A DNA stretch of 64,000 nucleotides from positions 15,378,001 to 15,442,000 of the forward strand of contig NW_024704743.1 in the NCBI RefSeq assembly GCF_018977255.1. The letters are read 5' to 3'. Numbering within the stretch: the first letter of the stretch is position 1; each line of letters begins with the position of its first letter. This DNA is from Callorhinchus milii. Lineage: Eukaryota. A model generated the notes under the pieces. That model made no database searches. It saw only the letters and a list, made by a program, of their open reading frames with translations, and was not told the DNA's origin. The position numbers were made by a program, and so were the translations under genes. Of the stretch, positions 4,729-27,261 are shown piece by piece.

Positions 4729-4783
4729 CTTGGAAACCTGTGCACATCGACATAAAGTGATAACATCCAGGTAGGAAAATATT
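4729..4783 (-). CDS. FBXL2: FBXL2 exon 3 (IFSYLDVITLCRCAQVSK, F-box)
   Basis: 55 nt with ttccacag| acceptor and |gtacag donor. Phase 2 in, phase 0 out, consistent with the neighbouring exons. Confidence 0.96.
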
Positions 4784-7094
4784 CTGTGGAAAAAATAGTA
4801 AAACTGAATATCAGATATAATACATTCAAGGGTAATTTTACCAAAGGTGGCTAGAGATTATGTTAAAGCAACATGGTATAGTATAAAATTTACAGTGCCC
4901 AAATAAAACTCACCACATTATAGCATTTTTTTTACAAGCTACAACATAACACTTCAGCAAATAAAAATTGATGTACCCATAACAAGTACAAAAAAGGGAG
5001 TGAATACGATTCAAATACTTTAAAAAGATGATATAAATAACATATGTAAGAAGACTATTTACTTGGATTATGACGCCACAGAAAAAGGTCACAAATTCAA
5101 AAGATAACAAGTTTCAAGCAAGAAAGACTAGAGGAAATAAAATCGCCATTTCTGAATACTGGATATATGAAATAAGCCCACAGGAAAATTAGCCATACTG
5201 TTAATTCTTAAAACATGGACTAATGTCATATTGACTGGAGTAAATTATTGGGCTAAGGTATAACAGGAAAAATGGAGCTCTCCATGGAAACAATATTTCC
5301 TGTAATGCCAGAACCAAGGAAGCAATTTCTAAAAGTAAGTGATTGTGTGGATGCAATCCATAAATAACCAAGAATTTTGTGTGTATAACTTTAGGTTTAG
5401 AGACAAATCTTTGCAAACTTAACAGAGTAGAGTGAAAGGAAACCAAATGGCCTTTTCTCATTCTGCTCTCCTTTAAAAATCAGGCAAAATTTTACTCACC
5501 AACAGAAAAACTGATGGGAAGTTCTGGGAACATACTCAGCTTTTATTCGCTTTTTTAAAAAATTGTAGAGGAGCACAATCATTAAACTATGCAAAACTGA
5601 TAGTTTTCTTTACAATGGTTTTAGCTAATGGTTCATGTCTTCAGTCGTAGAATAAGGCAAGATCACTAAAGAAGTTTGGATGAAGAAACATTTATAGCGC
5701 ATTTAATATCCTTCCAGAAGCCTTCCAACTACAAATGCGAGAAAGTGATGGGTTTCCTCGGGAACAAAATCAAGAGGATCCACTCAGATGCCTCTTCCTC
5801 TGCACCACTCCTATTTCTTCCCTAGTCTCCACTCACTCTTCCTTCCATACCTTAATTCATTAATCCCCCCCTCCCCCCCAGTCAATTCAATCCTTTGCCA
5901 CTAAATTGCATCTTAAATTTTAATCTGCCTGAAGTAGCAATACCTTAAGTAAGAAAGAGCACTGAAAAATTACAATGAACCAAAAAAATTTGAAAACAGT
6001 TCAAAGCTGAACTGAGTGACAAAACAAACAAGAGTAGACTAGGATTCAGAGTTGAATTTTTTTAGGGGAAAAAGTTCCTACAATAAGCTCATAATGGAAA
6101 AATCCCATTAATGGTACCCAAAGACTGCTAAAGATACAGACGCACATCACTCACCTCTAATGTCTGAGTTACATAATTGATTATAATGGGTTTTCTTAGA
6201 GCCTCTAATCAAGATTGATAAAAAGGACTTCCATCCTGTCCACATCAACTACTAAGTGATAATTCCTTTCAGTGGAAAATGAAGTAGATAAAATTTCAAA
6301 ACCATGACTAAGGAAAAACTCAAACTCATTCAAAAAGAACCTAAGGCCTAAGAATTCCTATGTGGCAAATAAAATGGATTTGCAATATTAAGTACAGTAG
6401 AACCTCACTAATCCGGTCACTAAAGGGACTGGGCAAAAGTGACCTATTTAGTGAGGTGACCTGATTACTGAAACAGCTCGGGTGATTCAGGTCACTGAGG
6501 TAATGCTAAGGGCATTGGTAACGGGCAATGGTGATGAACATTCAACAACCATACGTTGCAATCTCATTAAAATAAAGGCACTGTCATACTTAAAACAAAA
6601 GCTGTCATGTATTCAGCCATCCTTTTGAGAATGCAGCCAACTTATGTTCTGCCAATGCCATAGATCACAGCTAACTGTCTGACTTTTGTCCCCACTGTTT
6701 TTGATTAAGTCCACTCTCTCACGTAAGGACAACTCCTTCCATGGTGGCATGTTTACAGCACTTACCAAGAATTGGTTACAGGAGCTCAGGTTAGGCCACG
6801 GGCACCGGGCGAAGTTGATTTTCCGTTTGCGCCGCTTCCAGAATCCCAACACTCCCTGCGTGGCGCATGCGCAACCAGAGCCCACTGCACCCGCAGTAGC
6901 AGAGCTGAGGAAACAGCGCGAGAAGCCCGAGGCCTAGCGCACTGTGTACTGTACAGGTTAGCAGCCGGGGGACTGTGGTGGGTGGGGTTTGTACCGCATT
7001 TGAAGCGGAGGAAGGTGCTGTTGTGGCCGCAATCAATGATTGTTGTCCTGATTAATGAGGTGCCCGGTTTACTGAAGCAGAAAGCCTATCTTTT

Positions 7095-7215
7095 AACAAA
7101 AACAGAAGTCGCTGGAAACACTCAGCAGGTCAGACAGCATCTATGGAAAAAGGAAAGTGAGTCAACGTTTCGGGTCCATGACCCTTCGTCAGAACTCAAG
7201 TTTTCAGCAGTAATT
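7095..7215 (-). mobile_element. Penelope-like element terminal fragment nested in the Tigger-like element
   Basis: aaaacagaagtcgctggaaacactcagcaggtcagacagcatct...aacgtttcgggtccatgacccttcgtcagaac resembles the common chondrichthyan Penelope end repeat as I recall it. It carries the hammerhead core. Confidence 0.65.
7159..7197 (-). ncRNA. Minimal type-I hammerhead ribozyme motif (Penelope-type)
   Basis: The minus strand reads gagtt-CTGACGA-a-GGGTC-atg-GACCC-GAAA-CGTT-gactc. This gives a complete core, a 5-bp stem II, a 5-bp stem I (gagtt/gactc with one G-U) and a palindromic minimal stem III (AACGTT). Confidence 0.7.
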
Positions 7216-7762
7216 TACATTTAGTCTATCGTTTAACATTGACAATGAGAGAGACTGTGAAAATGTGCCCGCAATTGTCAGATGGCTGGATTACTGAGGT
7301 GACTGCAAACCGGGTTTCTACTCTATATTACCAACACTTTATTTCAGATACGTTAATCATGGGTCTAAACTGTCTGTTTACCTTCTCTCTTTTGATTTTG
7401 AGTTTGCTGGATGATTATTAATCACGTTAAATATATTGTTAAGGTTTATCTGCAATTTGGATTAATAATGAATGCGAGGATTATTATTATCTCTATTTTT
7501 CTCGTCATAGAATTTTTGTTAACAGCAAAGAAGAAGGCCATTCAAGCTTGTCAAACATCAACGACCTTGTCATGTATACTAAATATTTTAAATCAAATAT
7601 ACTAAGGAGACTATAATAGACAAAAGTACATCTGACATAAGGAAGGAGTTACATGTACTACCCAACTAAGTAAACAAATCACAAATTTAAATTCAACATG
7701 TAAAGTGCATAGTTTACATTAAATTGCAGCCAGGTGACTGACATGTGTGGAAACCCATCATC

Positions 7763-8080
7763 GTGAAGTCCTGTAGCTCAGTGGTTAGAGCACTCGCTTT
7801 GCAAGCGAGAGACCTGAGTTCAATCCAGGCAGGGCGAAACCTTGGGCAAGTTTTCTTACTCCACACGCCTAATAATAATCCCTCCAAAAACAAAACAATA
7901 ATAAATTGGTCATTTTCAATCTACGACTGTTTGTGGGACATTGCTGTGCGCAATTGGCTGCCGCGTTCACCCACAAATATACAGTCAATTCATTTTACAG
8001 TGTGTTCTGTGAAGCGCTTTGGGACGTCCTCCCGACGTGAAAAGCGCTATATCAAATGCAAGGATTATTATTATTATTAT
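7763..8080 (+). mobile_element. tRNA-Ala-headed SINE, short subfamily
   Basis: Pol III A box TAGCTCAGTGG and B box AGTTCAATCC, Deu-like body, L2-type tail and (TTA)n. Confidence 0.93.
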
Positions 8081-8796
8081 CGTGCTTAAGGGCTTCCAAA
8101 TCAGTCAGAGCTCTACATAGCTATCTGGAATAAACTCCACTCTCCCCCTTGAGGAACACACCCAACTTACCTAATAGGCACAGGTTGGTGAGAGCCATGA
8201 GTGAGGAACCTCAGAGTACGTGTTGAGGTAATGTTAAGAGTATAATCAACAATATTGTCATTGCTTGTCAAGCTAGGGCATCCAGATTACTTATTAAGGC
8301 TATAACTGCCCCTCGAAGTCCTACAGACAAGTTGGCTGGTCTGTCATCAGCAGTGCTTCAGAGTAAGGCGGATCTGCGATTTTGGAAATTGACTATCAAG
8401 ACTGTCACAGATTTGAGTAGATTTCAACATTCCACTCCCAATCACGTCACTTTGGCGGCATGTCAGCTCAGCAGGAGTCCCATTGCCATTCCCATTGATG
8501 GGAAGGGGACTCTTAATAAAATGTGTTGAATTGTTTTACAAAGAAGCAATACCTCAGAAGACATATTGAGAAGGGCGAATTTAGGTTAATCATCGGAAGT
8601 TACTACAGTGGAAGGTGCTTAAGGAAGGACACATCAGGGCAGTCCGGTTTAACCGGTTTTCTGAGATAAACTGAAGTTCTCTTACTTCTTCCCTTTCCAC
8701 CCAGCAGAGTGGCCGCCCCGCCTCCTCCCTTCCATTGCTGCTCCCATTGGATGGGAAGGGGAGCAGTTAGGGGTGTCTCCAAGGTGTCTATCACCT

Positions 8797-10711
8797 CAAA
8801 GCCATCTCCGCTCCCTAAAATCCCAAACCCAGCTGCTTGAGTGCAGGTGGCAGAAAACCAGCCTCATGGTTCACCACCAGCTGTGGCTCGAGCATCTTCA
8901 CACCTAATGCCGCTCCCTGTCACAAGCAAAAACTGCGCACTACTCAAACATCATATTGGAGGCCAACAATAATTTCAAAATCCTGTTCTCCACTGCCCAC
9001 CACCTCTTCCTTGCGCCCCCTCAAGCACCCTCAATCATCACATCTAACGCCAAGTGCAAAGAGGTCATGGACTTCCTTAACTCTAAAATTGATAACATCC
9101 GCCTGGCAGCAACATCCTTCTGCCCTGTATCGCCTGCCACCACCCCCATTCCATCTCCCCTCACCCACCCCGCCCTCAGCTCCTACCACAGCCCCCATCC
9201 TACATTCATTTGCCCCCATCTCTCCTTCCTCCCTCTCATCCACCATCACCCAACCCACCACCTGCTGCCTCAACCCCCTTCACCACCCAACTGCTGATCA
9301 CCCAGCTACCCCTCCTCTGCCCATTACTGGCAGACACTATCAACCAATCTCTCTCCTCAGGATCAGTCCCACCCCCCTCAAAACCACAGGCATCAACCCC
9401 CTCCTTATAAAAACCTACCCTCGATCCCTCCAACCTCGGTCACTACCACCCTATCTCAAACCTGCCCTTCCTTGCCAAAGCTCTGGAATGGGTTGTTGGC
9501 AACCAACTTCACGCACACCTCTCCCTCCATACTCCACTCCAACCCCTCCAGTCCGGTTTCCACCCTGTCCACAGTACAGAGACAGCGCTCGTGGAAGTCA
9601 CAAACGATATCCTCTCTATCTGTGACCAGGGCTTCCTCGTCCTCCTGGATCTCTCCGCCGGATTTGACACAGTCGATCATGCCATCCCCCTCCACCGCTG
9701 GTCCTCCATCATCTACCTCAGTGTGACCGCCCTTGGTTAGTTCGAGTCCTACCTTACAAACCACCAGCACTGCATTTCTGCAAATGGCCTTTCTTCTCGC
9801 TTCCACCTGTTTAACTGCAGGGTAGCTCAAGGCTCCATACTTGGCCCCCTTCTCTTCATCTATATGCTCCCTCTCGGTGATGTCACCTGCAGACACAGGG
9901 TTAACTTCCACTTGTATGCCGATGACACTCAATTCCACTTTTCCACCTCCAGCTGCTACCCCCAGTCCCCTGATGTTCTCTCAGCTTGTCTGTCGGACAT
10001 CAAAAGCCGGATGAGAGCAAATTTTCTGCAGTTAACCATACTCTTTGGCTCCCGTTGACGTCTTCTGTCCAACCTCCTCAACCTACTCGACCTGTCCTTG
10101 AAACTTTCCGAACCTGTGCGCAACTTAAGCGTCAGGCTCGATCACCAGTTATCCTTCCTCCCCCACATCCGGTCCCTGACCAGTACCGCTTGCTTCCACC
10201 TCTGCCACATTGCCCGTCTCCGACAATACCTCACCCCAAAAGCTGCTGAAACCCTGGTCCATGCCTTTGTCACTTCTCGGCTGGACTATTCTAACGCCCT
10301 TCTCGTCAGTCTTCCCACCTCCACTATTCACAAAATTCAGCTCATTCAAAACTCCGCTGCCCACACCAAACTTCATTCCCCGATTACTCCAGTCCTTGCC
10401 AAACTCCACTGGCTCCCTGTCACAGAGCAGATCGACTTCAAGATCCTCACTCTAGTGTTTAAATCCCTCCATTCCTTGGCACCACCCCAGCTCTCTAACC
10501 TCCTCTCTTCCTATAGCAGTACCCGCTGCTTCCGCTCTACTAGTTCCGGCCTACTCTGTGTCTCCCGAATCCTCTGCTCCACCATCGGCGGCCATGCCTT
10601 CAGTCACTATGCCTTGAAACTTTGGAAATCCCTCCCTCAACCCCTTCGCCTCGCCCCCTCCTTCCCCCATCTTCAGGTCGTGTCTGAAGACCTTCCTCTT
10701 CGACCATGCCT
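8797..10711 (+). mobile_element. L2 LINE, decayed RT region; 3' tail displaced to 12560-12638
   Basis: FHLYADDTQ, HAFVTSRLDYSN and LHWLPV motifs spread over several frames. Confidence 0.92.
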
Positions 10712-12558
10712 ACAACAACAACAACAACAACAAGATTCCATTTATAGAGCGCCTTTCACGTCAGGAGGACGTCCCAAGGCGCTGCACAGTTGGGTCATGA
10801 CCCGAGCAGGGGGGAAATGGTCAGGGTGAGGGGAGGGAAGGGAGGGAGAGAGGAGGGGGAAATGGTCAGGGTGAGGGGAGGGAAGGGAGGGAGCGAGGAG
10901 GAGGAAGAGAGTCGAGAGGGGAGCTGAAGGCACGGTCAAAGAGAAAGGTTTTGAGACCGGCCTTGAAGGAGGAAAGGGAGGAAGCAAGGCGAAGGCACTG
11001 GGGGATGGAGTTCCAGAGCCTCGGGGCTGAGAGGCTGAAGGCCCGACCACCGATAGTAGGGCGGTTGGGGCGGGGGACGTGGAGCAGACCGGAGCCAGAG
11101 GAACGGAGGGTACGGGCAGGTAGGTAGGGGGATAGTAGGTTGGAGAGGTAGGAGGGAGCAAGGCCGTGAATGGCCTTGTAGGTGAGGATGAGGATCTTGA
11201 AATCAATCCTCTGGGGGATGGGGAGCCAGTGGAGGCGAGCGAGGGTGGGAGTGATGTGGTCCCGAAGCCTGGTGCGGGACAGTACACGAGCTGCAGAGTT
11301 CTGAATGACCTGCAGCTTGTGGAGGGAGGTGGCGGGAAGGCCGGCGAGGAGAGAGTTCCCATAGTCCAGCCTTGAGGTGACAAAGGCGTGAACCAGGGTT
11401 TCAGCAGCGTGAGGGGTGAGGTAGTGCCGTAGTCTGGCGATATTCCGGAGGTGATGGAAGGCGGTGCCAGTTGTGGTGCGGATGTGAGGGAGAAAGGACA
11501 GCTCAGGGTCGAACAAAACGCCGAGGTTCCTGACTGGCTTTGAGAGGTGGAGAGTGCAGCCTTGGATGCTGATGGTGTCAGCGCCTGAGGTGCGGAGGCG
11601 CTGACGTGAGCCAATCAGGAGGGCCTCGGTTTTTTGCACGTTGAGCTGAAGAAAGTTGTCTCTCGTCCAGGACTCGATGTCGGACAGGCAGGCTGTCAGG
11701 ACATCGGTGGTCGTGGAGTTGAGAGTAGAGGAGGAAAGGTAGAGTTGGGTGTCATCCGCATACATGTGGAAGTTAACCCCATGTTTGCGGATGATGTCAC
11801 CAAGGGGAGCATATAGAGGGTGAAGAGGAGGGGACCGAGGACAGAGCCCTGAGGGACACCACATGAGACAGTACGGGGGGTGGAGGAGAAGCCATTCGTT
11901 GAGACGAAGTGAAGACGGTGGGAAAGGTAAGAGCTAAACCATTCAAGGACAGTGCCTTGAAGGTTGAGGTGGGAGGACAAGCGGTGGAGTAGGATAGCGT
12001 GGTCGACCGTATCGAATGCTGCCGATAGGTCGAGGAGGACGAGGAGACAGAGGGAGCCCTGGTCACAGATGGTCAGGATATCATTGGTGACCTTGACCAG
12101 GGCAGTTTCTGTGCTATGAGCAGCACGGAAACCTGACTGAAGGGGTTCAAAAAGAGAATGGGTGGAGAGGAAAGAGCGCAGTTGGGAGGCGACAACTCTT
12201 TCCAAGACCTTGGAGAGAAAGGGGAGGTTGGAGATGGGCCGGTAGCTTGATAGCTGCGACGCATCAAGGGAGGGTTTTTTCAGGGTGGGCGTGATGATGG
12301 CAGTTTTTAATGGAATGGGGACAGAGCCAGAGGAGAGGGACAGGTTTATGATGTCAGTGATGTGTGGGACAAGAAAATGGAGCTGGGAGATAAGGAGTGG
12401 AGTGGGGATGGGGTCAAGGGAGCAGGTGGTTGGTTTTAGGGATAGGATGAGTTCAGTGACAGAGGGTGGGGAAACGGGTACGAAGGTGTGTAGGGGAGGA
12501 TGGGTAGGAGTCGGAGTGTGGGAGGGAAGGGGTGGGTGGTGGGTGGAAGTTGGAGGGG
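10712..12558 (-). mobile_element. Young L2 LINE, 5'-truncated, RT with a single frameshift
   Basis: ORFs 11696-12580 and 10866-11864 ([47 protein letters not shown]). (TTG)n tail at 10712-10731. Confidence 0.97.
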
Positions 12559-13321
12559 ACCCTGGCTCAGCCTCGGCCATTGCTAAGTGCTCCGAGACAC
12601 CTCCCAGCGTGGATGGCGCTATATAAATGCAAGTTGTAATAAGTGAATTAATTCAAAATGTATATTATCTTTGACAGAAGAAATTCAATACTATGAAAAG
12701 TGCCAACTTTCTAATTTATAATAGAAAATGGAATCTTCTTTTTCCATGCAGATAGGGAAGGACTCCAATTAGGTAAGATTACTATGATCTAGAATTACAT
12801 ATTAAATTAAGGATAGTGTCAAATTAAGTCATCCAAGTAAATTTTAATGAAAAATTTGAAAATCTAAATGAAATAAATGTGACTGTCGAATCGCTACAAT
12901 TTACAAAATATAGTATTCCTAGGGAAGTGCTGCTTCTAATTTCAGTTGCAGCTTTCTTTTATAAGCATTTTGAGATTTAGTTTAATTTAGTCTGCAGTCT
13001 TAGTTTGTAAATTTAAGCACAAGTTCTTTAGTTCATTCATTATTTTTACGTTCACTTTGTAAGTTGTTTAGTCCTCAAGTTCATGTTAGATGAAGTTGTA
13101 ATGGAAAGCCAAGAGTAATAATAATACTTGCATTTGATATAGTGCCTTATCAAGTTTTTGAGATATCTCAAAGTGCTTCACAGAAACGTGATTACTGTAA
13201 AGTAAATTGACTGTATATTTTGTGGGCAAAACGCGGCATCCAATTGCACACAGCAGTGTCCCACAAACAGTTGTGGATTGAGTGACTAATTTATTTATTT
13301 ATTTTTGAAGGAATTATTATT

Positions 13322-13636
13322 GTGGAGTCCTGTAGCTCAATGGTTAGAGCACTCGCCTGGCAAGCGAGACATCTGGGTTCAATTCCAGGCAGAGGGCGAA
13401 ACCTTGGGCAAGTTTCCTTACTCCACACGCCTAATAATAATCCCTCCAAAACAAAACAATAATAGATTGTTCATTTTCAATCCACGACTGTTTGTGGGAC
13501 ACTGCTGTGCGCAATTGGCTCCTGCGTTTCACCCACAAATATACAATCAATTCACTTTACAATCTATTCTGTGAAGCGCTTTGAGACGTCTAGAAGACGT
13601 GAAAAGCGCTATATCAAATGCAAGGATTATTATTAT
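13322..13636 (+). mobile_element. tRNA-Ala SINE (short) nested in an opposite-strand SINE (13116-13320 and 13637-13747)
   Basis: The host SINE resumes after the (TTA)n tail. Confidence 0.92.
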
Positions 13637-15340
13637 CATTACCCATGGCAAAGTAATCCGCCAATCGACTAACAATCGGGTTCCTACTTACTGCTAGGTA
13701 AACAGATGCATGTGGAGTAACAAAACTTGCCCAATGTTTTGCCCTGTCCATTTTTACTCAAAGCAATACAAATAGCCAACTTTTCTGCAAGCACATCTAA
13801 ACACTTTCCTGAATTCAAGTACATGCAATGTAGCTTCAACTTAGTACAGAAAAAAACATAGTATAGAAAAAACGGAATTGTTCTAATGCTTCAAAACCTT
13901 GTATTCTGAAATGCTATACCAGAAGTAGAAATGTTCCCATTCAAGTTTGTAGTTTAGTTTCCCAGGAAGAGATGGGAGGATAGCTAAGGATGCTTTATGT
14001 AGAACAGCTTACATAGTAAGGTCACATAAATTATGAGTAAGTGTATGAGTAACTTCATAAATTAAGAAAACTCCGATATCATTCAGAAATTAGTGGAAAC
14101 AAAAATCTGCTGACAAATCCAAAAGTCTACCTTAATCAGCAACTGCAGTGCGAGCAAGTTAAGACTTTGTGCACGCACAATTTATTCTTCTATCTGAAAG
14201 AGCTCATGCATTTTTTATTGGTCATCCAAGTCATAGCCTTGATCACTGAAGCATACAATTGTTACCTTGCTGCAGAGCCTGGAAAGGTCATTTTTGCCAA
14301 ATAAATACAACTCTAATCTTGAACTCAACTGAACCCACCTAATTGAATCCAGCTAATATAATTCTCAAACTGGCCTTATGCTATTGTAACGTATGGAATA
14401 CTGAATTGAACCCAACTAATATTGGACTGTTGGAATCACAAACAAAATCACAAACAAAATAAGAACTGTGCGTTAAATAGTAATTAAATAAAGTAGACGC
14501 TTGTAGAAACAAATGTAGTTTCTTGGCTTGAGCAAAGTTAAACAATATCCCTGCAAATATTGAACTTAACTCACGATAATTAGACTGTTTACATTGGACA
14601 ATTCAGACAGCTAAATTACATTCCACACTTACCCACTCTTAGCAAAATAATATGTTCCATTTTTTCCCCCACAGGTATTCACTATAGAATTTGCATTATC
14701 CCTGAATTATGCTTAAAAGACATTTTTTAATCAAAATACTGCCCCTAGATTTAGGGGATTTTAATATAACTCACTGAAGCTTAACTTGTTCGCCCAACTT
14801 GAGTCTCACCTACAATAAGCAACTTTAGTGAATTACGGCACAGAGAAGAGCCAGACGTGCCCCAAAGATGCTTCATTGAATTTAACGGTGCCATGCACTT
14901 GAGACTGGCCTGGGAGTCAACCCAGACCCGCTTCCCCCAACCCCAGGAAAGTTGGGAATTATAGTCTAGTTGCTGATGCTTCATTTTCCTGAAATCCAGA
15001 TACCTTCCAGACAACTTCAAATCCTCCATTGAACTCAGTCGAGTCACTCTAGAACCCATACCTACTTGGCTCTTCCACTACTTTTTGGTGGGATGTTTCG
15101 TGTCAGTATTACCAATGCGAGCCGACCTCTATAAATGCTTCCTCCCTGCTTTCAAGCCTGCTGCTAATCCTCCCAATACTCTTTCTAACGATTCGTTGGA
15201 CTCTGCTTTTATTCTTTCAAATATTAATTTCGTCAATATACATTATTGAATTGGGAATCCCTTCTAGTATTTGCAACAGTTTTATTTTTTGGAAACGTCT
15301 CTTTGTGCTGATCTTATGCCAAATAGCATTCTCTACAAAC

Positions 15341-15656
15341 AATAATAATAATAATCCTTGCATTTGATATAGCGCTTTTCACGTCGGGAGGACGTCCCAA
15401 AGCGCTTCACAGAAAACTGTAAAGTGAATTGACTGTATATTTGTGGGCGAACGGGCAGCCAATTGCGCACAGCAATGTCCCACAAACAGTTGTAGATTGA
15501 AAATGACCAATTTATTATTGTTTTGTTTTTTGGAGGGATTATTATTAGGCGTGTGGAGTAAGGAAACTTGCCCAAGGTTTCGCCCTCTGCCTGGAATTGA
15601 ACTCAGGTCTCTCATTTGCAAAGCGAGTGCTCTAACCACTGAGCTACAGGACTCCA
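15341..15656 (-). mobile_element. tRNA-Ala SINE (short)
   Basis: Near-identical reverse complement of 7763-8080. Confidence 0.93.
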
Positions 15657-15989
15657 ATATCTTCCAAATGTTAAGAATGTTAGGTAAGCACTTTTTTTGG
15701 ACAATTTAAGCTGCCAATATCCCCAAAAACAATCCAATGTTGAACAATGTTTTGCTCCATATATTAACGAGTGTACATCTTCAGAGATTTGTATTGCATA
15801 ATGCTCTTAAGACTTTTTAAAAAAAACTGATGTGGGTCTAAACATATCCATAATGTTTTAACTATGATCACAAAAGTACTCATCCAGTCAGTGGTGGGCT
15901 TCATGACATAATTAAAATGGGAATGTTTAAAATAATTCAAAAGGTGAATGAAGAAGAAAGTGGACTACTAGAAAGTGAGGAAATATTGG

Positions 15990-16900
15990 AAACTATTCAC
16001 AATTCTGTCCATTCTCATTTTCTTTAATGTTTCTTTTAGCCTTTCTTTTGTGGCTTGTGTTTGTTCTTGTAGATTGTCTCTTCTGGTCACCTTCGGTCCT
16101 GTGATCTCTCTTTTTCCACCAAGTTTTCCCCTCTGGACCTTGTAATTTATGTCTGTATTTCCTTGCATAATGTCCATATCCATTGCAAATATGCATTCCT
16201 TTCCTGCACTGAACATCACCTGAGAGCATGCTTTAATCTCATTCTTCAGTTGTTTTTGCTTTCGTCTTGGTCCATATGTTTGTTTTATTCCATACAACTT
16301 ATCTGAATCATTCCAGTTCCTCTGTTCAGCCAGTTTATCTATTTCCATTTTTTTTTATCAGCTTTTTCCATTTCCTGTGTGTGGGTCCTTGACATTTTCT
16401 TTTTTTTTTGTACAGCTTTCCCCAAGACCATGTCTTCCTGTTTCAACAGCTTACTGCATGGCTTGTTGCCGCGAATTCTGATCTGAGTACCGCAAAATAC
16501 TGTGTAAATGATTCTGTTAGGCCTTGCTTCCTGGTTACAAATAACTCTCTTGAGTGTCGAAATACTTCCATGCCTCTTATCCTGCCACACTTACAAAAAA
16601 CAGCATAGAATTTTGTTGTCTTGTAGCAGCAGGTTCGTAGCTATCACAAATATTCCAACTGGTGCCAATTATGTCAGAAATTTCTTGTTAGCTTCAATGG
16701 TCTTGGTATTTACAAACATCTTGATGGGTAATCTGGTTCCATTGCTCCTGAAATAATTTTTGCGTGTTTCAATGTACCTTTCCAGCCTCTTAGTTTTTCC
16801 AGTCCAAGTTTGGTTCCTTCCGACACCATGTAATAAGTAGAGTACTCACAAAGTACCGGCTACTGAGCTTGAGTCTCGATCCAAACCAGTACACTCCAAC
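15990..16900 (-). mobile_element. Highly decayed RTE-like LINE C-terminal fragment
   Basis: Weak remnants such as VSTLL..., RLE and QRGKLGGKR resemble the RTE C-terminus. Many stops. Confidence 0.35.
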
Positions 16901-17407
16901 CCATGGCAATAACCATACCCTATGCCCCTTTTCGAGTGTTCTTTTATACATCATGAATCAATCCCATCGGCTGTTAATTGATTGTCATTATCTCTTAAAG
17001 GGATCTCACCCCAAACAGATTGAAGACAGGAATAAACAAGTCTAACCAAGGAAATTACATTTAGTTCAATACTTAAACACTGTAAGACTTCAACAGAGTT
17101 GCAGCTTCAGTTTTAAAGCCAGGCCAATAGCTGTTTTGTAAATACAAACAATACTACAGTGGAATGCTGGTTATCCTCACTAATTATCCACAAGTTGCGT
17201 GCGTATGTGCAAGGTTATGGGGAAATCATTTACCAATGCTGTACCAAGACATCATGAGACTAGTAATCTAGTGCCCATGGATGCACCTTCACGACGACAA
17301 TAACAACAACTCTTAAAGGGATCTCGGAGAGATCCCTTTAAGAGACAATATCAATCAATTAACAGCCGATAGGATTGATTCATGATGTATAAAAGAACAT
17401 TTGAAGA

Positions 17408-17651
17408 ACCATCAGCGGCCGTGCCTTCAGCCACTATGCCCCAAGGCTCTGAAACTCCCTTCCTCACTCCCTTCGCCTCGCCCCCTCTCTTCCAATTTTC
17501 AGGTCTCGGCTGAACACCTTCCTTTTTGACTGTGCCTTTGGTCACCACTTCCCCCTCCCCCTGGCTCGGTCCCGGGATCTGTTACTGTGAAGCGCTCTGA
17601 GACGCCGTCCGGCGTGGAGGGTGCTATATAAATCCAAGTTATTGTTGTTGT
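17408..17651 (+). mobile_element. L2 3' end inside a complex insertion
   Basis: L2 3' UTR, tail hairpin and TATATAAATCCAAG(TTG)n. Confidence 0.85.
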
Positions 17652-17822
17652 TGTACCAAGACATCATAAGATTAGTAATCTAATGCCCATGGATGCACCT
17701 TCATGACTAATAGAAGGGGATACTTCCCAAGATACAATTTAATATTTACACTCCACCAGTGAAAGTAAATCAAGCAAAAAGCCTGCAAGTTCTCAAAAAC
17801 AAATTACAGAACACATTCTTAC

Positions 17823-17884
17823 CTTAACAAAAGTTCTTTTGGCAGCTTTTTGTTTATGGGTGCTTCATCATTGTTTGAGAAAAC
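17823..17884 (-). CDS. FBXL2: FBXL2 exon 2 (VFSNNDEAPINKKLPKELLLR, start of the F-box)
   Basis: 62 nt with ttag| acceptor and |gtaaga donor. Contains the F-box motif LPKELLLR; VFSNND matches FBXL2. Confidence 0.96.
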
Positions 17885-24929: not shown

Positions 24930-24959
24930 CTCAAACCTGCCCCTGGCGATGCCGTTCAT
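24930..24959 (-). CDS. FBXL2: FBXL2 coding exon 1 (MNGIARGRFE)
   Basis: The minus strand reads ggcggcgacATGAACGGCATCGCCAGGGGCAGGTTTGAG|gtgagc inside the CpG island. It is phase 0 into exon 2. The peptide resembles the N-terminus of fish FBXL2 and of FBXL20 (..SRFE) as I recall them. Confidence 0.9.
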
Positions 24960-25037
24960 GTCGCCGCCGCCTCTCCTCCTCCTCCTCCTCACGCTCCTGA
25001 AACCCGGCAACCCGGAGCCGCGAGACCAACCGCCGCC

Positions 25038-25045
25038 TGACGTCA
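25038..25045. promoter_or_regulatory. Full palindromic CRE (TGACGTCA)
   Basis: Exact CREB/ATF consensus about 80 bp upstream of the ATG. A second near-match (GACGTCA) lies at 25149-25155. Confidence 0.7.
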
Positions 25046-25163
25046 CGCACGCACGCACTGCCCACGCACGCACTGCCTCACGCACGCACGCACGCACGCA
25101 CTGCCGCATCCTCAGAGCTCCTCCCCCGGCGGAGCCACAAGGAAACGCGACGTCAACGCTGGT

Positions 25164-25195
25164 CCGATTGGGCGGCCTTCACGCCGCCCGATTGG
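25164..25195 (-). promoter_or_regulatory. Tandem CCAAT (NF-Y) boxes
   Basis: CCGATTGGGC occurs twice, with ATTGG at 25167 and 25191 (24 bp apart). On the gene strand this reads GCCCAATCGG. Confidence 0.65.
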
Positions 25196-27261
25196 GCGTG
25201 TTTTTGTGCCTGTGCGTGTGAAAAAAAACGGCTTTGGGCGGTTTTGCCTGATTTTTTTTTAAATTGATGAATAACATTTTTTCTGGTTGGGGGGGGGGAG
25301 ACCTTTTCTGACACGGGTTCAAAACGCTAAATAGGCAACTCTGTTACCCCCCCTCCATAGCAGTCAACGCATTACATTGGGCTACTTTTTGGGCTCGTGT
25401 TGGGTGGGACTTTGGGCGACAAACGTGTTTTAATCGCTTAAAATCAGGCGGCGGCAACGCCCGCCCTCAACCTGGAGGGAGGCCAGGCGAGCCCCTCCCC
25501 CCCCGGCACTGAACCAAACTGGTGCGCGTAATGTGTGTTTAAGTGTTTATTTTTATTATGTATGAAAATAACTCGGGTCAGTTCAAGAGGAAAAGGAAAG
25601 AAACGCCAGGGAAGAGCCAGGGCTGTGCGTCGGGCGTAATTTGGGTGGTGCGTGATTACGTATGCGCGTCCGTGCGTGGCGTTCCTCCTCCCACTCGCTC
25701 TTCGCCCCGCCCCCATCCCTGCGTCATTAATAATAATAATAATAATCCTTGCGTTGGACGCAGCGCCTTATCGGGTGTTGGAGACGTCTCAAAGCGCTTC
25801 ACAGGATATACTGTAAAGTCTATCGACTGTATATGCATATTTTTTTCAGAGCGCTTGACAGTCGCGCAGCACAGTGCCGAGTTTGGGGGTGGGGGGGGGG
25901 AGGGGAAACTGCAAACGCCTGCAAAATGCCAACCAACCGCAACCCCCCACCCACCCCACACACCCACCACCGTTTGCACAAAAATTTGGAAAATTCGCTT
26001 GGCGCGGGCAGTGATGGCATTGCCACTAAATCAGGCATGGCACATACTTATCTACTTCCACGCCAGCAGAAATTGACAAGAAAAATAAAAGTTTTATTTG
26101 GTTATGTGAACAACCATCAACCAGTTTAATAGTATCCAAACTAGACTGACAGCTTCACATTTGTATGCCACCTACACATGGAAATCTCACTGTCTGGAAG
26201 GGAATGCACACTTGTACCTATTTATCTAAGTGTTAGGCACAGGTGGGCAAGAAACAGCTATTGAAAGTACTGTATGGCGACCTTCCTGCTGCTTGTCACT
26301 ACCCTACCTTTAGAGCTTTGGGTTGCAGGGATAACGGGGACCAAGTAGGTTCCAAGTAGGACCCTGGTCCAAGTGACTATCTGCCACGCCATATTTTGCC
26401 ACTGAATCAGGTTGGCTGGTCTGGCATCAGCAGTGCCCTGGAGAATTGCCGGTACATCTGTTCATGAATAGGACTAACAGGTCCGCCGCAGATGGTTGAC
26501 TCTATGCCGAAATTCTATTACCAAGTATGTCACCTTACTCCTCTCTCCCCCAGCAGATAGTCACTAGATGGTCATTTCACAATCCGAAAAGCACAAGTTT
26601 GAGTCCTCCTTAGGTGAATAGCAGGTACTTGGAACTCCCTCCAAGCTTCATGGTAAGCAGCACAGCTCAGTGTCAGTGTATGTGGGTATTGCCACCGTCC
26701 TCCTGCACAACAGCTCGGACAAACCCCCTACCTCCTAAGCTATGGTTCCACCAGTTGAAGTGTGAAGTTTGAGCAGCAGCTACTTACCTCTCTGCGAACC
26801 ATACACTGGACATATGAATGTGTGTTCCTGAACAACAAAAACAACAACTTGCATTTATATAGCACACCTAATGCAAGGTAGTGCCCCAAAGCGCTTGAAC
26901 CAAGAGTCCAAGATATGTCTTCCAGTAGCTGTCAGTCCCAAGCCTCAGAGTTTCCTCATTAGCTATTTGACAAGCACTTGCATCTGAATGATGGAACAGG
27001 ACAGCTTGTGATTTGCCAGCCACCCTGATGCTCTAGAAATCCAAGTTAAGCAAACTCAACACCAATTGCATTATACAGGTCTTCTTCACGTGAGTGGCTT
27101 TAGCAAGTAGACATGCCCACTTTGAAGCTGACTCTGCCTTCAGGATGCTCAGCAACAAGTCAGTGTCTTTCAAATGCTTATTCTTCTGGTGTGGATTTTT
27201 GTGGCATTTCTGTTATTGTGGGCTCATTGGTACTATTTATAATTTACATATGTATGTGTAG

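Follow-up and report, generated by a model that had tools for sequence, protein, structure and literature searches.

The window, by which we mean the whole 64-kb stretch of DNA analyzed here, carries five FBXL2 exons on its minus strand, all of them with GT-AG boundaries and joined in frame with 0 stops (Table 1). Two of the exons match human FBXL2 (PDB 6o60_C), one with identity at 24 of its 25 residues (E = 6e-12) and the other with E = 4e-14, and FBXL20 is not among the PDB matches of the exon peptides. We take the gene to be FBXL2 rather than its paralogue FBXL20, an assignment that draws on the 24/25 identity. In the region of the first coding exon and its CpG island (24930–25200 and beyond), the CpG observed/expected ratio is 1.04 at 25001–26000, and GCGT microsatellites occur just upstream of the exon. 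Our main interest is a hammerhead ribozyme motif in intron 2; exon 2 ends 10.7 kb before it, and exon 3 begins 2.4 kb past it. It is sense to the FBXL2 pre-mRNA, and the gene context given for it in an earlier note on this DNA is correct.

Table 1. Coordinates of FBXL2 exons, nested repeats and the hammerhead motif in the window
Feature	Position	Strand	Basis
FBXL2 first coding exon, 10 codons, beside CpG island	24930..24959	-	GT-AG, frame
FBXL2 coding exon 2	17823..17884	-	GT-AG, frame
FBXL2 intron 2, 13,039 nt	4784..17822	-	exon joining
FBXL2 coding exon 3	4729..4783	-	GT-AG, frame
Further FBXL2 exons	3902-3828; 3644-3550	-	GT-AG, frame
Decayed Tigger/pogo-like DNA transposon hosting the insertion	6395..7323	-	terminal inverted repeats, TA flanks, multi-copy
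CENP-B-like HTH remnant	6750-6616	-	atlas lead
Target-site duplication, left copy, 16 nt, 14/16 identical to right	7083..7098		repeat comparison
Target-site duplication, right copy	7223..7238		repeat comparison and skip joints
98-nt fragment of very high-copy repeat, likely pLTR 3′ end of a Penelope-like element	7099..7196	-	depth, loose ends
26-nt piece like an inverted, partly deleted copy of the family tail extension	7197..7222	+	by eye against loose-end consensus
Minimal type-I hammerhead motif, predicted cut 7164/7163	7159..7197	-	matches Cervera and De la Pena 2014 Fig. S3 consensus
Hammerhead core numbering	C3=7192, G8=7187, A9=7186, extra A=7185, G12=7171	-	descriptor scan
Cleavage-strand numbering	A15.1=7168, C15.2=7167, G16.2=7166, U16.1=7165, U17=7164	-	descriptor scan
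Splice-acceptor-like site: branch candidates A7162, A7158, pyrimidine tract, AG 7142-7141, ATG 7140	7138..7165	-	pyrimidine count

The motif lies within a short insertion, which in turn lies within a decayed DNA transposon. The transposon is delimited by terminal inverted repeats and a TA target duplication, with one terminal base changed at the 7323 end, and contains subterminal repeats of 17–18 nt in both orientations (at 6402, 6437, 6454, 7041, 7058 and 7280). A CAGT start is typical of Tigger/pogo termini. Peptides of the element gave matches for 0 of 2 in Pfam and no match in a homolog search; the top match of its coding remnant in the atlas is CENP-B_N at 0.88, a weak lead. Together, the termini and this lead make ‘Tigger-like’ a fair but not proven label. 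Many internally deleted relatives of the element are seen among the run contigs.

The insertion (7099–7222, 124 nt) is located between 16-nt direct repeats 140 nt apart. Contigs from four sequencing runs were compared with it, two runs being labelled as the source species and two coming from other species. In all four, contigs join 7091 to 7232 and skip the intervening 140 nt (5, 3, 5 and 6 contigs); these contigs represent host-element copies that lack the insertion. No contig bridging flank and insert is present among those listed for the two other species. Run X5, presumed to be RNA, contains intronic contigs; depth is absent from one exon bin, and none of the 15 joints listed out of 232 is exon–exon, for which reason this run was set aside as evidence of expression. 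Assembled contigs do not reveal RNA ends in any case. Endonuclease-positive Penelope insertions are described, in the available parts of the literature, as having a one-sided tail of 30–40 nt, an inverted partner and a target duplication; the target-site duplication and empty site of that type are both found here. The earlier note had pictured a ribozyme within Penelope, within Tigger, within the intron. A retro-insertion into a Tigger-like element in the intron is borne out by the duplication and the empty-site joints, whereas the Penelope part of this nest is likely rather than certain and the Tigger part goes as far as the termini and the weak lead allow.

The inserted repeat belongs to a very abundant family. 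Bin 7064–7195 has a depth of ~30,000, 52,000 and 41,000 times that of the single-copy flanks in runs X1, X8 and X14, respectively, a ratio of summed contig depth rather than a copy number and one from which run X5 is excluded. By contig depth, three species contain this repeat in great abundance. Loose ends of contigs cluster at 7095/7098 and at 7194–7196. Beyond 7098 the family copies share a 30-nt extension, and beyond 7196 they continue into a different common sequence; the window copy is therefore 5′-truncated, at the 5′ arm of the hammerhead. In all three species, contigs of the family stop or change strand at 7194–7196 by the hundreds, and this position may be a hotspot for truncation or fold-back, or the pattern may be an effect of the window copy ending there. 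Within the 64 kb, blastn and nhmmer found no second copy, the family tail was likewise absent elsewhere, and collection scans returned 0 other copies in viral contigs and 0 in prokaryote genomes. Twelve metagenome matches were discarded as chance, 0 of the 12 having a hammerhead or further similarity.

The minus-strand sequence from 7197 to 7159, re-read from the window, is as the earlier note reported it. Both hammerhead core boxes (CUGANGA and GAAA) are present, with GUU as the NUH triplet. Stem II is a perfect 5-bp helix (7184–7180 with 7176–7172, all Watson–Crick) capped by a 3-nt loop, A9 is followed by one extra A, and the predicted cut after U17 is correctly placed. Two stems differ in extent from what had been proposed. 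Stem III is indeed palindromic, but standard numbering reduces it from AACGUU to ACGU (A15.1-C15.2-G16.2-U16.1) because A14 and U17 are core bases rather than part of the stem. Stem I is present, but a U-G wobble closes it and it extends to 6 bp here instead of 5. Because contigs of the repeat family diverge from the window after 7196, only 4 of these pairs are family-encoded; those past 7196 come from the insertion junction, where the likely inverted-tail piece (7197–7222) happens to provide the outer pairs of stem I. We also considered the loop II AUG as a start codon for the element and rejected it, as a stop follows after five codons.

The motif agrees at all positions with the published consensus for minimal hammerheads. 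An unpaired base is found between A9 and 10.1 (A7185), the first pair of stem II is G10.1–C11.1 (G7184–C7172), loop III is absent and positions 15.2–16.2 are palindromic (C7167–G7166 within ACGU). With both strands of the 64 kb scanned, a minimal-hammerhead descriptor matches 7197–7159 and nothing else; in 300 shuffled versions of the window (order-3 Markov), it gave 2 loose matches (0.0067 per window) and 0 strict ones. The earlier note had suggested a comparison with Rfam, and this was negative: with Rfam 15, no hammerhead model matches the window at its gathering score or at E ≤ 10. When the window copy is compared by eye with the loose-end consensus of two other species, 2 of 30 bases differ beside the motif. 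Among the 40 of 463 variant rows listed for the run contigs, none lies inside the motif. By every sequence feature examined, the motif is a minimal hammerhead of the kind described in 2014.

In the available text and figures of Cervera and De la Pena 2014 (PMC4209133), the minimal hammerheads of Penelope elements share with the window motif CUGANGAH, the unpaired base before stem II, G10.1–C11.1, GAAAN-N-U-H, a palindromic 15.2–16.2 and a short stem I. The Fig. S3 list has instances of U17 as well as of C7, and the published copies, like this one, are mostly solitary and derived from truncated elements. The window copy differs in its 3-nt loop II and in the strong acceptor-like site that follows it. 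The repeat and SINE types in the window suggest a cartilaginous fish. Such fish are absent from the species lists of that study (Table S1 and Fig. S3, in the parts available); Li et al. 2026 (bioRxiv 10.64898/2026.07.22.740005) include one, as far as the accessible text goes. Our literature search on Penelope elements, sharks and ribozymes found no report of such a motif.

The anole Poseidon element PAc offers a second point of comparison (PMC11167929, portions of the text). There, too, a pLTR hammerhead lies ~65–100 nt upstream of the insertion end, and an optional tail of 30–40 nt is found at insertion ends. The PAc ORF begins at stem II, whereas the candidate start of the window copy lies 23 nt past the cut and no ORF is present. 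A motif scan of the 64-kb window likewise found no ORF with a telomerase-like RT and a GIY-YIG endonuclease. The motif class and the anatomy of the insertion point to a Penelope-like element as the likely carrier, and it is this anatomy that makes membership of the Penelope superfamily likely.

Intronic hammerheads of another type, those of RECK and C10orf118 in amniotes, are single-copy, conserved and active as monomers. These resemble the window motif in being intronic in a host gene (PMC10761166, in part), but we reject this type here, given a high-copy repeat, the lack of a stable stem III and a monomer that is predicted to be inactive.

Non-LTR retrozymes also carry a type-I hammerhead in a short non-coding repeat, and >40% of their Xenopus copies overlap introns (PMC7229834; Li et al. 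2026; both as partially available). The retrozymes in PMC7229834 have canonical hammerheads in tandem, whereas a single minimal motif in a dispersed fragment is found here, and a tandem retrozyme is ruled out by the single copy in 64 kb. The repeat could nonetheless be an independent short non-autonomous element, SINE-like or a retrozyme monomer, instead of a Penelope terminal fragment. Many contigs do end near 7194–7196 with mixed flanks (agreement 0.34–0.39 in most rows), and solo retrozyme monomers are described in vertebrates, including one chondrichthyan (accessible parts of several sources, Li et al. 2026 among them). We give this idea scarcely any weight. In each of the four runs the loose ends at 7196 share continuing sequence, with agreement of up to 0.51, and longer family copies therefore exist; the one-sided tail and the strand-switch joints at 7194/7196 are Penelope signatures in the literature available; and there is neither a tandem array nor a stem III of the canonical type.

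Can the window copy be expected to cleave? In the predicted monomer fold, stems I and II do form, and G5-A6-C7-G8 pairs with C15.2-G16.2-U16.1-U17 at a probability of 0.87–0.99, both alone and in a 440-nt context. The open hammerhead-like fold makes up 0.5% of the ensemble, compared with 37% in a control lacking C7. The view in the earlier note that a lone monomer would be weak is thus matched by a prediction in which the core is trapped. The active double hammerhead has a computed energy of −23.5 kcal/mol; two free monomers are more stable by 8.5 kcal/mol, and the best dimer, which is inactive, by 13.4. Removing C7 lowers the cost of the active dimer from +8.5 to +3.1 kcal/mol, and the nearest-neighbour energies penalise any minimal-hammerhead dimer, as this control illustrates. 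Because such energies omit the hammerhead core contacts, Mg2+ and chaperones or other proteins, and because C7 occurs in published families, they point to weakness and not to impossibility. No partner copy for a dimer is present within the 64-kb window. Lunse, Weinberg and Breaker reportedly announce dimer cleavage by such motifs in the title of a paper. GUU is listed among the cleavable triplets in the accessible literature.

The earlier note had proposed that every FBXL2 pre-mRNA contains a latent self-cleaving motif that another Penelope-derived RNA could complete in trans. In its broader form, this would have family RNA or the element RT/endonuclease refold the copy, so that the pre-mRNA is cut at 7164/7163 and FBXL2 expression is lowered or rerouted. 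The core is intact and in the sense orientation, and the depth of the family implies a huge pool of partners. According to the available text of Cervera and De la Pena 2014 (PMC4209133) and a review, a single minimal hammerhead does not cleave, but dimers (and trimers) do so weakly in vitro, and protein-assisted cutting is known from the anole Poseidon hammerhead, which was cut only with the element protein (Frangieh et al. 2024, PMC11167929, in the parts available). The same source reports no RNA-seq read ends at the site, even for this expressed element, and finds the hammerhead dispensable for insertion in vitro. It also places the protein-binding region within the first 172 nt of the element ORF, and the window copy is just 124 nt long. 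Introns cut by a slow hammerhead are still spliced (Dye 2006, Fong 2009, as described in citing text), and splicing would tolerate slow mid-intron cutting. With the predicted core trap, the dimer penalty of +8.5 kcal/mol and the weakness of published minimal hammerheads, cleavage of FBXL2 pre-mRNA in trans is highly improbable, and the claim is not supported.

We regard it as very probable that the locus contains an intact minimal hammerhead in a 124-nt insertion with a 16-nt duplication, likely the 5′-truncated end of a Penelope-like element, and that the motif would be inert in the FBXL2 pre-mRNA. The element RT/endonuclease would have copied the last 98 nt of the terminal repeat, together with an inverted tail, into the Tigger-like element in intron 2. 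Within a complete element the motif would work as a dimer through ACGU pairing, or with help from the element protein. With the lone copy, the nascent RNA is expected to form a single long hairpin that pairs the catalytic core to the cleavage-site strand, and intron 2 would be spliced out and degraded uncut. On these predictions, a host function of the motif is unlikely.

Two points can be raised against an inert motif: (i) every core base is intact, even though the insertion is old enough for its duplication to have decayed, and (ii) the nucleus probably contains many partner RNAs, given the abundance of the family. For the first, the 2 of 16 mismatches in the duplication correspond to ~6% decay per copy, an estimate based on 16 bases, at which 14–43% of copies would keep 13–30 critical bases (4–59% for decay of 4–10%). 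Intactness of the motif needs no selection because neutral decay spares such a fraction of copies, and an intact core alone is weak evidence of function.

The region just past the predicted cut resembles a splice acceptor (Table 1). Branch candidate A7162 is two bases past the cut, and the tract contains 15 pyrimidines of 17, which ties for best among the 373 YAG sites scanned in intron 2; four real FBXL2 acceptors score lower (12, 14, 6 and 10 of 17). The tract and AG are also present in the loose-end consensus of the family in two other species. From ATG 7140 to the end of the insertion there are 14 codons. The accessible literature describes a rotifer Penelope whose pLTR carries the initial 12 codons, or 22 if the tail is included, and a 5′-UTR intron in the Penelope and Chlamys elements. 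By analogy, the candidate acceptor and ATG 7140 may be the end of the element's own intron and its start codon.

If a host effect exists, it could operate through splicing, with the cryptic AG 7142–7141 and a donor at 6765 defining a 375-nt poison exon and stem I hiding the branch point. Beyond its best-tied tract, which surpasses the four real acceptors, the site has branch candidates at 22 and 18 nt, and the donor at 6765 agrees with the consensus at 7 of 9 positions (real donors at 6–8 of 9). The candidate pseudo-exon has stops in all three frames (5, 3 and 4). A crude pyrimidine count is no splice-site model, though, and both branch candidates are inside a stem predicted at 0.69–1.0. In addition, the candidate exon would be long, at 375 nt, as internal exons go, which counts against it. 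We therefore see a small chance at most of such an effect.

A more general form of the idea is about as doubtful: that the element has a 5′-UTR intron whose branch point overlaps the cut site and whose AG abuts the ORF start, that cleavage and splicing are alternatives, and that sense intronic fragments are fold-gated cryptic acceptors, the 375-nt poison exon of FBXL2 being one outcome. Among titles and opening parts of abstracts, we found nothing that links Penelope-like hammerheads to a branch point and nothing on their exonization. Cut site, branch-point candidate, acceptor and start codon overlap here, the one feature for which we found no description in the literature.

As found, the motif matters little, being one more copy of a class reported in 2014 in thousands per vertebrate genome (PMC4209133, in the text available). 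Should it be true that sense intronic copies are cut in trans or serve as acceptors, many host genes would be touched, given the abundance of the family, and the in vivo role of Penelope hammerheads would gain a direct test.

Other repeats are also evident in the window. Nine tRNA-like heads match the Rfam tRNA model (7767–7837, 13330, 15587, 22631, 41543, 43720, 51341, 59404 and 60372), and they probably represent a single SINE family instead of tRNA genes. The FBXL2 introns also contain, on both strands, long remnants of ORFs similar to LINE reverse transcriptases (1109–2757, 8900–10830 and 10866–12652), which we presume to belong to the CR1 and L2 families.
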